64,000 nt of DNA from Gammaproteobacteria bacterium (GCA_028819565.1 JAPPLD010000018.1:28927-92926), one strand, 5' to 3'; shown: positions 24,062 through 63,868, counted from the stretch's first letter. Program-made: numbers and translations. Notes: generated by a model from the sequence alone, not told the origin.

Positions 24062-24355
24062 ATGGCTTTTGGGCGCGAAATCGAGATGGAGTTCGAGCGA
24101 GTGAAAGTGAGCCCCGAGATGGTTGGGATCGCGAGCGGGAGCGTGACCGTTCTCGCATTTATGCTGGCGCTGTTCGTGCTCATTTGGAATCTCGGTCAAA
24201 GCATAAGCGATCTGCGCATAGATATGAGCGATCTGCGTGTGGAACTGAAGGGCGATATTGCGCATCTCAACGAGCGCGTGGCGCGTGTCGAAGGCTTGCT
24301 CGAAGGCTATATCGAGCGGTCTCGAGCTGAAGATGTGGCGGTGACCACCGAATGA
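24062..24355 (+). CDS. Small N-terminal TM coiled-coil protein, family member A
   Basis: TM segment, heptad coil, ERVARVEGLLEGY; GGAG upstream; alternative start 24086. Confidence 0.75.
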   Translation: MAFGREIEMEFERVKVSPEMVGIASGSVTVLAFMLALFVLIWNLGQSISDLRIDMSDLRVELKGDIAHLNERVARVEGLLEGYIERSRAEDVAVTTE

Positions 24356-24425
24356 CGCTTCAGCGGAAAGCCCCGGGCCAGGCAACTCGAAGGCGGCTTA
24401 CCCTTGGTATCATGGGAGCGTCTTC

Positions 24426-24677
24426 ATGGCTTTTGGGCGCGAAATCGAGATGGAGTTCAAGCGAGTGAAAGTGAGTCCCGAGATGGTTGGGATCGTCGGC
24501 GGATGGCTGACCGTTCTCGTGTTCGTGTGGACCCTAGGCCAGGATATGAGCGATCTGCGCACGGAGCTGAAGAGCGATATCGCGCATCTCAACGAACGCA
24601 TGGCGCGTGTCGAAGGCTTGCTCGAAGGTTACATCGAGAGATCTCGGACCGGGGAAGATATTGCGGTAACCGAATGA
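24426..24677 (+). CDS. Small N-terminal TM coiled-coil protein, family member B
   Basis: Paralogue of A; ERMARVEGLLEGY; alternative start 24450. Confidence 0.75.
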   Translation: MAFGREIEMEFKRVKVSPEMVGIVGGWLTVLVFVWTLGQDMSDLRTELKSDIAHLNERMARVEGLLEGYIERSRTGEDIAVTE

Positions 24678-24773
24678 TCCGACCAGACAGGTTTTTCGCC
24701 TTTGGGACGGAGCGGTTCTACTGAGCGAGCAAGAAAATAGATTTAGAATTCCGGGCAATCACCGAGAGTTTTT

Positions 24774-25127
24774 GTGGACAGAAAAACATCGAAGACTTTG
24801 GAGGAGGTGCTGAACCAGCTTTCTCCTGAGCAGCGCAAGAAAATCGACGAACGAACGGACGAACTGATCGCCGAAATCATGTCGCTGCGGGACTTGCGCA
24901 AGGTCCGGGAAAAAACCCAGGAGCATGTCGCCGAGGTGCTCGAAATCACCCAAGAGAATGTTTCGCGAATTGAGCGGCGCCGGGACCTCCTGGTCTCGAC
25001 GCTCAGGCGGCACGTCGAAGCATTAGGCGGGCGATTGAGCCTGATCGCGAAGTTTCCCGACCGTCCTCCAGTGGAACTGACCGGCATCGCCGATTCGGAT
25101 GATAGCAAGTCTCCGGCTCAATCGTAA
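24774..25127 (+). CDS. XRE-family HTH protein (HigA-like antitoxin) without an intact toxin gene
   Basis: LRDLRKVREKTQEHVAEVLEITQENVSRIERRRDLLVSTLRRHVEALGG. Confidence 0.85.
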   Translation: MDRKTSKTLEEVLNQLSPEQRKKIDERTDELIAEIMSLRDLRKVREKTQEHVAEVLEITQENVSRIERRRDLLVSTLRRHVEALGGRLSLIAKFPDRPPVELTGIADSDDSKSPAQS

Positions 25128-25168
25128 AGCCTCCATTTAGGTAAATCTTTTCGCTGTTGCGCCAGAGA

Positions 25169-61138: not shown

Positions 61139-61208
61139 AACGACGCCATGCGTTGCCGGGCGGCCGGGCCGCCGCGCTGAACTTTTGCCTTCGGGCGCGG
61201 TCTCTCTG

Positions 61209-62192
61209 ATGGGGGGGATTTGCCCGAAAGGCTATGGGAGGCTCTTGCTGGTGACGTTCTTGGCGACGCTGACCCCCCAAGTGAACGGCGAGACGGATCC
61301 GGCGAGTTGGCTCGTTCGCGCCGATCAGGCGGCCGAGCGAGCCAATTTTTCCGGCACGATGTCCCTGGCCGACGACGGCGAGACGCGCCGCACGATGAAG
61401 ATCGAACAGGGTTTCGACGGGCGAAACACCCACCAGCGGCTGGTTTCGGTGTCCGGCGGGGAGGAATGCGAGATCCTGCGGCGGGCCGACGAATCCACCG
61501 TGGCGTACCCCGACCGGCGGGTGGTCATCCACGGCTACCAGCGCCCGCAGAGCCCGATCCCGAAGATCCATCAGAACCTCGACCAGCTGAAGCAGCACTA
61601 CCGGCTGGAGCTCCAGGGCAAGGAGAAGGTCGCCGGGCGGGACTGCCAACTGGTCGCGGCCGAATCGAAAGACGACTACCGCTACGGTTGCGAACTCTGC
61701 GTGGACACGGTCTCTGGGCTGCCGCTGCGGGTGCGGATGATGGTGCCGGGCGGCGAAAAGATCGAACAATTCGCCTTCACGTCCCTGGACGTGCTGGAGT
61801 CCATGCAGCAGTTCGAGCCGAATAGCTTCTGGCTCGCGACCGACACGCACGGCTTCGAGATGATCGGCTTGCCGTACGGCTCCGAACTGGCCCCGCACAC
61901 GTGGCACGTCCACGACCTGCCGCCCGGCTTCGAGGTCCAGTTCGCGGTCATCCGGAAGCTGCCGCTCGACCCGAACCCGGTGTACCATATGGTGCTGGCG
62001 GATGCGCTGTCCCGGGTTTCGGTGTTCATTACTCCCTTGCCCGAGGATGGGCAAGTCAAGGGCCGGGAATTCTCGCGCAAGGCGCTCAACGGATACGTGA
62101 CGGTGAGAAGCGGACACCGGGTCACCGTGATCGGCGGCGTCCCGGCCGAAACCGTCCGCATGATCGGCGATTCGCTCCACCTGGAGCACTGA
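61209..62192 (+). CDS. rseB: RseB/MucB periplasmic regulator
   Basis: VAGRDC, DDYRYG, TVSGLPL, EQFAF, LPPGF, SVFI, VIGGVP; start uncertain. Confidence 0.88.
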   Translation: MGGICPKGYGRLLLVTFLATLTPQVNGETDPASWLVRADQAAERANFSGTMSLADDGETRRTMKIEQGFDGRNTHQRLVSVSGGEECEILRRADESTVAYPDRRVVIHGYQRPQSPIPKIHQNLDQLKQHYRLELQGKEKVAGRDCQLVAAESKDDYRYGCELCVDTVSGLPLRVRMMVPGGEKIEQFAFTSLDVLESMQQFEPNSFWLATDTHGFEMIGLPYGSELAPHTWHVHDLPPGFEVQFAVIRKLPLDPNPVYHMVLADALSRVSVFITPLPEDGQVKGREFSRKALNGYVTVRSGHRVTVIGGVPAETVRMIGDSLHLEH

Positions 62193-62222
62193 TGTTCCGG
62201 ATTTGAAGGAAAAGGAGACCTG

Positions 62223-63644
62223 ATGCAACCAACCTGGATTCCCAAGGCGCTCACCGTGGCGCTCGGCCTCATGATGGCATTCGCGCCGCTTCAGGCGCGC
62301 GAGCTGCCGGACTTCACCGACCTGATCGAGAAGAACGCGCCGGTCGTGGTCAACATCACCACGAGCCGCAATGTCGGGGGGTCCGCTTCCGGCAGGAACG
62401 CGCCGCAGGAGACCCCGGAGGATATGCCGGATTTCTTCCGCCGGTTCTTCGAGCAGATGCCGGAGGGCCAGCAGCAGCGTCCTCCGCAGCAGCGGCGCCA
62501 CGGCACCGGGTCCGGGATGATCTACTCCTCGGACGGCTACATCGTGACCAACCACCACGTGGTCGACGGGGCGGACGAGATCATCGTGAAGCTCAGCGAC
62601 AAGCGGGAATTCGTGGCGGAGAAGGTCGGATCCGACCCGCGCAGCGACCTGGCGTTGCTGAAGATCGATGCGGATGACCTGCCGACCGCGACGCTCGGCA
62701 ACTCGGAGGAACTGAAGGTCGGGCAGTGGGTGCTGGCCATCGGTTCGCCGTTCGGTTTCGAGCACTCGGTGACCGCCGGCATCGTCAGCGCCAAGGGGCG
62801 CAGCCTGCCGAGCGAGAACTACATCCCGTTCATCCAGACCGACGTGGCCATCAATCCCGGCAACTCCGGCGGGCCGCTGTTCGACATGGACGGGCGCGTG
62901 GTCGGCATCAACGCGCAGATCTACACCCGCACCGGCGGGTTCATGGGCCTGTCTTTCGCCATTCCGATCGACATGGTGTCGGAAGTGATCGCGCAGATCA
63001 AGAAAGACGGTCGCGTCGTGCGCGGCTGGCTCGGCGTGTACATCCAGGAGGTGACCCGCGACTTGGCCGAATCGTTCGGACTGGATCGCCCGAAAGGCGC
63101 AATCATTGCCGAAATCACCGAGGATGGCCCGGCGGATGAGGCTGGACTGGAGGCTGGCGACATCGTCCTGGAGTTCAACGGGAAGGAAGTGGAAAGTTCC
63201 AGCGCGTTGCCGCCGATGGTCGGGCAGGTGAAGCCCGGCGAGACGGTCAAGGTCGAGATTCTGCGCGGCGGCGAGCGCAAGACAATCAAGGTGACCCTGG
63301 GGCAGTTGCCGGACGATGGGGCGCCGATGGCAGTGCCGTCCGGGGATGAGGGACCGTCGGAGGAAGAGGAGATCCTGGGCATGCGCCTGGAGGAGATTTC
63401 GGAAGAGGTGCGCAAGAAGCGCAATCTTGGAGAAGGCGGCATCCAGGTGAAGGAAGTGACCGGGGATCCGGCGCGTTCCGCGGGCATCCAGAAGGGCGAT
63501 GTGATCCAGATGTTTGCCGGGGAAAAGATCGAGTCGCTGGAGGACTTCAAGGAAGCGGCGGAGGACCTTGAATCCGGGCAGCCGCAGCCGATCCTGGTGC
63601 AGCGCCAGCAGGGTTCGCGGTGGTTGGCGCTGACGCCTGAATAG
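62223..63644 (+). CDS. degP: DegP/MucD HtrA serine protease
   Basis: TNHHVV, DLALLK, INPGNSGGPL, two PDZ domains. Confidence 0.93.
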   Translation: MQPTWIPKALTVALGLMMAFAPLQARELPDFTDLIEKNAPVVVNITTSRNVGGSASGRNAPQETPEDMPDFFRRFFEQMPEGQQQRPPQQRRHGTGSGMIYSSDGYIVTNHHVVDGADEIIVKLSDKREFVAEKVGSDPRSDLALLKIDADDLPTATLGNSEELKVGQWVLAIGSPFGFEHSVTAGIVSAKGRSLPSENYIPFIQTDVAINPGNSGGPLFDMDGRVVGINAQIYTRTGGFMGLSFAIPIDMVSEVIAQIKKDGRVVRGWLGVYIQEVTRDLAESFGLDRPKGAIIAEITEDGPADEAGLEAGDIVLEFNGKEVESSSALPPMVGQVKPGETVKVEILRGGERKTIKVTLGQLPDDGAPMAVPSGDEGPSEEEEILGMRLEEISEEVRKKRNLGEGGIQVKEVTGDPARSAGIQKGDVIQMFAGEKIESLEDFKEAAEDLESGQPQPILVQRQQGSRWLALTPE

Positions 63645-63673
63645 AGGGGCGAGGCGCGTCGGAGGAGGCAATC

Positions 63674-63868
63674 ATGATGGATACGGTAACGATTCAGATT
63701 GTCTCGTTCCAGATGGCCGCACTGGTGGCAATCTTGGGCTTTCTTTGGAAGCTTCACCACGAAGTCGTCAATTTGCATAAGGACAATGCCGACCTGCGCG
63801 AGCGCATGGCGAGAGTGGAAGGTTTGCTGGAAGGCTTCGTCGGCCGCCCGCCAGAACCGCAATCCTGA
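63674..63868 (+). CDS. Small N-terminal TM coiled-coil protein, family member D
   Basis: GGAGGAGG SD; TM segment; LRERMARVEGLLEGF. Confidence 0.8.
   Translation: MMDTVTIQIVSFQMAALVAILGFLWKLHHEVVNLHKDNADLRERMARVEGLLEGFVGRPPEPQS

Follow-up and report, generated by a model that had tools for sequence, protein, structure and literature searches.

Small coiled-coil proteins with one predicted membrane helix: an unnamed multi-copy family in a gammaproteobacterial genome and in metagenome-assembled genomes of three phyla

A stretch of 64,000 nucleotides from the genome of a Gammaproteobacteria bacterium (GCA_028819565.1, JAPPLD010000018.1:28927-92926; G000:C21:28927-92926 in our numbering), hereafter called the window, contains four small open reading frames (ORFs), termed copies A to D, which share a short N-terminus, one hydrophobic helix, a heptad coil and a conserved end. 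This locus raises the question whether the four ORFs belong to one gene family and what such proteins may do. A preliminary description had regarded them as four copies of an expanded, diversifying and length-variable family of trimeric membrane stalks. Our analysis makes it very probable that we are dealing with a family of self-associating single-helix membrane microproteins, the length of which is tunable by repeat slippage, and the genes of which are autonomous, occur in multiple copies, are subject to purifying selection and show a patchy distribution among symbionts of several phyla. As best explanation for the data as a whole, we put forward more tentatively that this unnamed single-pass inner-membrane coiled-coil family may act as tether or adaptor.

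A multi-copy gene family under purifying selection

We found the four ORFs at the coordinates and with the lengths (97, 83, 116 and 64 amino acids, aa) given in the preliminary description (Table 1), and the terminal motifs quoted there were present as well. VSPEMVGI occurs at the N-terminus of A and B and VSLELIAI at that of C, and the four quoted C-terminal ends are ERVARVEGLLEGY, ERMARVEGLLEGY, RMDHLEELFQGF and ERMARVEGLLEGF. When all 29,077 six-frame ORFs of the genome (1.8 Mb, 31 contigs, 96.7% complete) were searched with phmmer, A and B matched each other with an expectation value (E) of 2e-31. D matched A/B at about 1e-6, B matched C at 1.4e-6 and C matched D at 3e-4 to 4e-3, and for the pair A-C no match was reported. 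C is the most divergent of the genome's copies. A profile made without C matched its helix and juxtamembrane part at 1.4e-7, that is, beyond the coil alone, and three relatives (P0082, L008b, L010) join a C-type N-terminus (MNVSLELIAIVALW..) to repeats and an end of the D/E type. Because of these two observations, we consider C a member of the family. The phmmer E-values and the match to the helix and juxtamembrane part of C indicate that the similarity of C and D to A and B goes beyond coiled-coil composition, and judged by sequence comparison the four ORFs are true paralogues of one family. The same search raised the number of copies in the genome to at least eight (A-D plus E, F, G and H). 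Thus, the postulated expansion was borne out, while the count of four has to be revised; the remaining copies lie outside the window.

A region of about 25 nt upstream of the start is common to A and B and was duplicated along with the gene. Both may alternatively be translated from an internal GTG (window positions 24107 and 24471), and A would then comprise 82 aa. Initiation at this codon would give MSPEMVGI, which compares with the MSPELIAI starts in relatives, and one relative carries ATG at the matching codon.

The ratio of nonsynonymous to synonymous substitution rates (dN/dS, Nei-Gojobori) was between 0.07 and 0.32 in all 16 pairs of paralogues or orthologues, with dS values of up to 1.5, and third-position changes dominated in 15 of them. 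The exception was the low-divergence pair L010/L008b, in which 4, 3 and 4 changes were counted at codon positions 1, 2 and 3. Because of the dN/dS values in all 16 pairs, the family is under purifying and not under diversifying selection; the attribute diversifying must be dropped, since repeat number alone varies.

The length variability of the family was confirmed. Tandem Repeats Finder (TRF) detected a 42-bp repeat inside C (Table 1) and a 33-bp repeat inside E. One 42-nt unit of C (window 54831-54872; L095 1258-1299) is absent, in frame, from contigs of two other sponge-derived runs, which come from two studies, so that strains exist with a C one unit shorter. Tandem paralogues elsewhere (three copies in L015, three in L074) differ mainly in repeat number. 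In two mosaic paralogues, an E-type leader and C-terminal part are found on a C-type N-terminus (MMNVSLELIAIV..), and a joint of L095 (10471 to 1102) in one metagenome run (depth 3.5) shows such a mosaic. Because E-type and C-type parts are joined in these genes, they suggest recombination between family copies.

With respect to transcription, most family copies look like self-contained units. A strong sigma-70-like promoter match precedes A, and a terminator consisting of a hairpin and a T-run is present at E. D may be co-transcribed with the degP/mucD-like gene that ends shortly before it. E, H and their genus orthologues have in common a leader of about 110 nt, which opens at an extended -10-like TGCTAAACT and holds a CCCTC..GAGGG hairpin as well as GGTTGGAATAAATAAGGC...CCGACC. 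It is better conserved than synonymous sites and confined to one subfamily of one genus. Its consensus fold comprises two short hairpins only, with little covariation, and Rfam returned no family in the leaders or flanks.

Modelled helix, oligomer and topology

From an alignment of 34 diverse family members (overall length span 50-130 residues), a common anatomy can be seen. The N-terminus comprises 2-10 residues, acidic for the most part (often MSPELI.. or MDT...), and is followed by an uncharged helix of about 19 residues, which closes in ..AILGFLW and passes into the interface motif LHRD. The stalk consists of zero to many repeats of 7 (HRDIAGL, LEDRMSR) or 11 residues (DLRKDVGKDIA). Then comes the near-invariant end DLRERMARLEGLFEGF (DLRERMARxEGLhEGF plan), which includes the motif R-h-x-x-h-E, and a short polar tail. 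The smallest members (about 50 aa) are made up of the helix and the conserved end alone. R-h-x-x-h-E was present in 79 of 79 close relatives and in 143 of the 150 distant relatives listed. In PMC6173795, which cites Kammerer et al. 2005, it is documented as a trimerisation motif.

D was modelled by AlphaFold2 as one helix (residues 2-56) with a mean predicted local distance difference test score (pLDDT) of 86. When three copies of D were modelled with a 48-row alignment, an ipSAE of 0.70 was obtained in three of three runs, compared with 0.00 for the best of three controls. Between runs, at least 93% of contacts were the same, and the partner pLDDT did not fall below 80. In the calibration of the tool, the mark was reached by 20 of 30 solved same-chain pairs and by 1 of 23 single chains, but this calibration was made with two copies and thus applies to the three-copy model only roughly. 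The modelled contacts are parallel and in register (20-20, 27-27, 34-34, 41-41), follow a 3-4 spacing and extend from the membrane helix to residue 52. R44-M45-A46-R47-V48-E49 of D occupy the g-a-b-c-d-e positions, with M45 and V48 as core contacts. The preliminary description had named R-h-x-x-h-E as a trimer motif and had called for trimer modelling; the motif is present in the ORFs, in the register of a parallel trimer model. According to these models, the chains most likely self-associate as parallel in-register homo-oligomers.

When the 15 residues after the helix were compared with the flank before it, the number of lysines plus arginines (K+R) was higher after the helix in 188 of 198 members, equal in 4 and lower in 6, with means of 3.2 and 0.36, respectively. 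The flank on the N-terminal side is short (median 3 residues) and net acidic. Applied to this bias, the positive-inside rule predicts an N-out/C-in topology with a cytoplasmic coil, which contradicts the surface or periplasmic stalk proposed earlier.

Distribution across phyla

A profile search of 1.84 billion sequences yielded 659 representatives at E<=1e-3, and at least 3,148 proteins were found at E<=1e-6 (8,000 scored candidates). The best 120 were all without name; the sole name met among relatives was 'hypothetical protein' of a gammaproteobacterial metagenome-assembled genome (MAG). In the own genus, 11 of 15 other genomes were positive (0-14 matches each), and the family's copy number shifts fast between close relatives. 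The rest of the order contributed one weak match in 15 genomes, and an even sample of the class, comprising 398 genomes outside the genus, gave no profile match at 1e-5. A scan of 185,579 species genomes confirmed at least 412 loci. We examined the best 80 of these, with taxa taken from the record titles, and all were from MAGs: 34 Gammaproteobacteria, 26 Alphaproteobacteria, 11 Acidobacteriota, 7 Binatia, 1 Chloroflexi and 1 unspecified. Several of the Binatia and Acidobacteriota matches lie on chromosome-level records of 4-6 Mb. Four such genomes carry 5-13 dispersed matches each, and 15 of 120 other Binatia genomes matched. Homologues and multiple copies in other lineages thus strengthen the initial notion of an expanded family.

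Titles among the best loci include Candidatus Poriferihabitaceae, Rariloculaceae and Porisulfidus, and the window DNA itself occurs in 'sponge metagenome' runs. Porisulfidus is a known sponge symbiont according to PMC12988363, and the labels APA_bin and SB06xx_bin stand for symbiont MAGs of Aplysina aerophoba and Ircinia ramosa in PMC11706023. SB06xx, APA and Porisulfidus were the only labels confirmed in papers.

The patchy sharing of the family across at least three phyla is most simply explained by horizontal transfer. A 6-kb contig recorded as 'Chloroflexi' (L064, VXPS01000099.1) carries two family genes that are 88-94% DNA-identical to copies in several alphaproteobacterial MAGs (L073, L083, L087, L090, L091). 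This contig is probably mis-binned; recent transfer would be the alternative.

We consider the cross-phylum, sponge-linked distribution the most interesting part of the finding. Since the family was detected in MAGs of three phyla, many of them sponge-labelled, yet in none of the sampled relatives outside the genus, it is a candidate marker of life in association with sponges and may even be one of its effectors. Small proteins are regularly overlooked; this family, which counts thousands of members and has neither name nor domain entry, is nevertheless under clear purifying selection, with up to a dozen copies retained even in a 1.8-Mb symbiont genome. The family also offers a simple system to study length tuning of coiled coils by repeat slippage. 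A more far-reaching interpretation, to which we attach little weight, holds that these proteins constitute a "symbiosis microprotein" of the whole habitat: sponge symbionts that are not related to one another would exchange a self-trimerising membrane stalk with a sponge-specific function, which would then be an undescribed functional class. Such a protein might, for example, tether a shared cytoplasmic partner or serve as a new stand-alone membrane defence or addiction module, its length being tuned by slippage.

Possible roles, named families and genomic surroundings

In the reading we favour, each protein would form one continuous helix, with the acidic N-terminus outside, the membrane helix, a cytoplasmic coiled coil and the R-h-x-x-h-E/EGLhEGF cap. 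The length of the stalk would shift as tandem repeats of 21, 33 or 42 bp are gained or lost in frame, and also by recombination between paralogues. The conserved helix and the C-terminal cap would engage a partner at the cytoplasmic face of the membrane, and repeat number may set the distance of this partner from the membrane. We favour such a tether or adaptor because helix and cap are conserved far beyond the need of an anchor or a generic coil.

Several points weigh against this interpretation. The three-copy model supports self-association and cannot separate a trimer from a dimer or tetramer, and coiled coils are easy targets for such structure models. The positive-inside rule is the sole basis of the predicted topology, and the same 15 post-helix positions of the coil also contain 2.8 acidic residues. 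The 431 neighbour ORFs of the best 80 loci fell into 380 clusters, the largest of which was present in 6 loci, and no Pfam family occurred more than twice among 119 immediate neighbours, a tally based on crude ORF calling from which ORFs below 60 or above 450 aa were excluded. No recurrent fused domain was seen among 39 longer forms. Because there is neither a conserved neighbour nor a recurrent fused domain, we can only infer the role as tether or adaptor. As to the spread, most of the 80 MAGs are linked to sponges by taxon names and isolate labels. Moreover, the guanine-plus-cytosine (GC) content of family genes tracks that of the host (r=0.74), and copies from different phyla share no more than about 84% DNA identity (over about 100 nt), the one suspect bin excepted. 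Because of these two properties, the transfers look old and not ongoing, and ancient descent followed by loss is an alternative to them.

By the profile searches carried out here, no named family claims the proteins, and the family is unnamed and unannotated. Pfam, NCBIfam, PADLOC and PDB agree in this respect with the preliminary description, which had recognised no named family with this organisation. Pfam and NCBIfam returned nothing for A, B and D. C matched more than 140 coiled-coil families (143 in Pfam), matches that we read as composition; no Pfam family matched more than 3 of the 34 members. DUF7310 (PF23991) matched C at 42.8 bits (cut-off 40 bits) in the heptad array only (residues 55-103), A, B and D gave no match, and 3 of the 34 members matched with a best E of 0.0011, which we likewise read as composition. 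In PDB, sequence searches retrieved generic coiled coils only (best E 0.005). LEGLFEGF, RMARLEGL, RMARVEGL and FLWNLHRD were found in no paper in a literature search of main texts. An N-terminal helix plus coiled coil is a known architecture; judged by this search, neither the family itself nor its conserved end, size and habitat-linked spread across phyla seem to have been described before.

Membership in XhlA, DUF1640 or holin families, which had been considered before, was not supported, the profile matches being absent or below cut-off. XhlA (PF10779) gave 24.7 bits for C (gathering cut-off 34.7) and no match for A, B and D. DUF1640/CCDC90 (PF07798) matched neither A, B and D at E<=10 nor the 34 members at E<=0.01. 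CCDC90-like/DUF1640 proteins are likewise small coiled coils that occur in several copies, vary in their repeats and have a single membrane helix, but this helix is C-terminal and accompanied by an N-terminal FDT...AG domain, whereas the helix of the present family is N-terminal. One CCDC90-like ORF is present in this genome. The Bdr proteins of Borrelia are also multi-copy paralogues with one membrane anchor and short repeats that vary in number, as in this family; their anchor is C-terminal, and they are encoded on plasmids and confined to Borrelia.

Among other explanations for the family, it is conceivable, if unlikely, that each copy is a selfish, stand-alone gene for a small membrane toxin, as in type I toxin-antitoxin systems, with the long 5' leader as target of an antisense or trans RNA and with spread by addiction. 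The small ORFs with one helix and a charged tail, the dispersed and often tandem copies without conserved neighbour, the sharp copy-number differences between close relatives (0-14 matches), the strong conservation of the E/H leader (about 110 nt) relative to synonymous sites and the persistence of eight copies in a streamlined 1.8-Mb genome are in line with this idea. However, no antisense promoter was predicted in a consensus scan, dS values of 0.5-1.5 do not indicate synonymous constraint from an overlapping RNA, and the restriction of the leader to one subfamily in one genus also argues against it. To our knowledge, the type I toxins described so far do not resemble a family with members longer than 100 aa and with an oligomerisation motif of 16 residues that is near-invariant across phyla.

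Braun's lipoprotein Lpp forms a trimeric coiled coil (about 58 residues) and sets a distance in the envelope by its length; it is lipid-anchored in the outer membrane and periplasmic. A corresponding trimeric spacer in the periplasm or at the surface, anchored in the inner membrane with its coil outside and involved in envelope spacing or in contact with host or phage, is considerably less probable than a toxin. The trimer motif and trimer model, the length polymorphism between strains and the proximity of window copies to envelope genes (lpxA/lpxB, rseB-degP) would be compatible with such a spacer, but the acidic N-termini are almost without K or R and lack a signal-peptide-like positive N-region, and in 188 of 198 members K/R are concentrated behind the helix. 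Unlike Lpp, the proteins are anchored by a transmembrane helix and their coil is predicted to be cytoplasmic, and the envelope-gene context is not kept in 80 other loci.

A phage origin, with domestication of a lysis protein (resembling an i-spanin, a holin or XhlA) or of a superinfection-exclusion factor, is in our view similarly improbable. Rz (phrog_739) and XhlA likewise combine a membrane helix with a coiled coil, C matched holin, hemolysin and spanin PHROGs at 1e-4 to 1e-7, and the Rz-like spanin profile was weakly matched by 4 of the 34 members (best 1.6e-6). The nearest clusters by features in the ESM Atlas are unnamed viral ones of 56-58 aa (0.91-0.92), which is a lead only. Yet, A, B and D match no PHROG, the weak matches are scattered over 26 families, as expected from composition, and those to spanin and XhlA profiles stay below cut-offs and are confined to repeat-rich members. 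The topology of the i-spanin Rz is opposite to that predicted here, and the XhlA helix is at the C-terminus. Beside the family genes, neither an o-spanin partner nor phage genes or another phage context were seen. Relatives were also absent from IMG/VR (89 pattern matches, 0 confirmed), from 50,697 phage records and from 72,556 plasmids, and when 5,027 PADLOC-DB models of anti-phage proteins were applied to the 34 members, one match was obtained (Drt8, E=0.0096) and nothing else.

PspB, a protein of about 75 aa with N-out/C-in topology, likewise starts with a helix, carries Trp/His where this helix meets the cytoplasm and has a helical zipper towards the C-terminus. An envelope-stress component in the manner of PspB or YhcB, with a cytoplasmic coil that would signal membrane stress, shares this architecture by eye (helix, W..LH at the interface, C-terminal RER-h-xx-LE-x-hh-D/E) and would fit the match of C to TIGR02976 (PspB, 4.7e-5) and the position of D and E downstream of the rseB-degP genes, but it is just as improbable, since PF06667 missed all eight copies (best genome match 13.3 bits at an unrelated place), hhalign of the family alignment with six PspB sequences gave a probability of 0.9%, PspA (PF04012) and PspC (PF04024) were not found in this 96.7% complete genome, and the variable repeats, the different conserved end and the multi-copy, patchy spread are unlike PspB and a housekeeping stress system.

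The coordinates of the family copies and of neighbouring features are compiled in Table 1.

Table 1. Positions of family copies, sequence signals and neighbouring genes (without prefix: window coordinates; G000:C21, contig carrying the window; L, other sequence records in our numbering)
Feature	Position	Strand	Remarks
Sigma-70-like promoter	23938-23966	+	TTGACA-17-TATATT, 11/12, about 95 nt upstream of A; consensus match only
Copy A	24062-24355	+	97 aa from ATG
Copy B	24426-24677	+	83 aa; tandem duplicate of A, 84% identity
Copy C	54675-55025	+	116 aa; long heptad array
Tandem repeat inside C	54825-54982	+	42 bp (14 residues); 3.2-3.8 copies, 85-89% matches (TRF)
Copy D	63674-63868	+	64 aa; 29 nt after degP/mucD-like gene
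Copy E	G000:C21:92994-93254		126 nt downstream of D, just past window end
Copy F	contig C13
Copy G	contig C16
Copy H	contig C2
Leader upstream of E	L001:4880-4994
Leader upstream of H	L004:6790-6900
Leader, further records	L005, L008-L014
Mosaic paralogues	L008:1504-1734; L010:1501-1731		E-type and C-type parts
lpxA (+) to lpxB (-)	22978-26533		convergent; enclose A and B
XRE-type helix-turn-helix gene	24774-25127		orphan
DUF4172-Fic/DOC protein	53395-54516		upstream of C
Steroid 5-alpha-reductase-like membrane protein	55078-55839		near C
DUF4143/AAA_14 ATPase	55910-57169		flank of C
Accessory island	L095:10851-13001		G000:C21:93350-95500; L001:5601-8635
IS1595-family transposase at G	L003:6995-7936		ISXO2-like
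IS1595-family transposase at H	L004:5454-6374		ISXO2-like
CCDC90-like ORF of this genome	C9:135102-135716
CCDC90-like genes 3' of family genes	L055:4164-4466; L081:4322-4590		also downstream flanks of L022, L078, L082, L093

A placement of the copies in accessory slots, as noted in the preliminary description, holds in this genome. A and B are located between lpxA and lpxB. D follows the rseB-degP genes, and together with E it opens an accessory island between degP/mucD and lepA. The reported vicinity to toxin-antitoxin or Fic genes applies loosely to the window, where a helix-turn-helix gene of the XRE type follows A/B and a Fic gene precedes C, but it does not extend across the family. The gene order around A and B is unusual for an lpx cluster. 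The other two genes recorded near C encode an ATPase and a reductase-like membrane protein (Table 1). In the island, a DUF6338 protein and two ORFs of 537 and 138 aa without Pfam match are encoded, and the stretch between degP/mucD and lepA is nearly uncovered in contigs of three of four other runs compared.

Transposases of the IS1595 family (ISXO2-like) adjoin G and H in differing relative orientations. We rejected the possibility that the family genes are cargo of an IS1595 mobile cassette: around six regions, only imperfect inverted matches of 14-16 nt were detected, none of which bracketed the genes. In tblastx comparisons, the flanks were conserved within related lineages only. In 6 of the 80 loci, all from one gammaproteobacterial group, a small CCDC90-like/DUF1640-like gene lies directly 3' of the family gene; it encodes an FDT..AG domain, repeats and a C-terminal helix and scores 25-28 bits, below the cut-off of 33.5.

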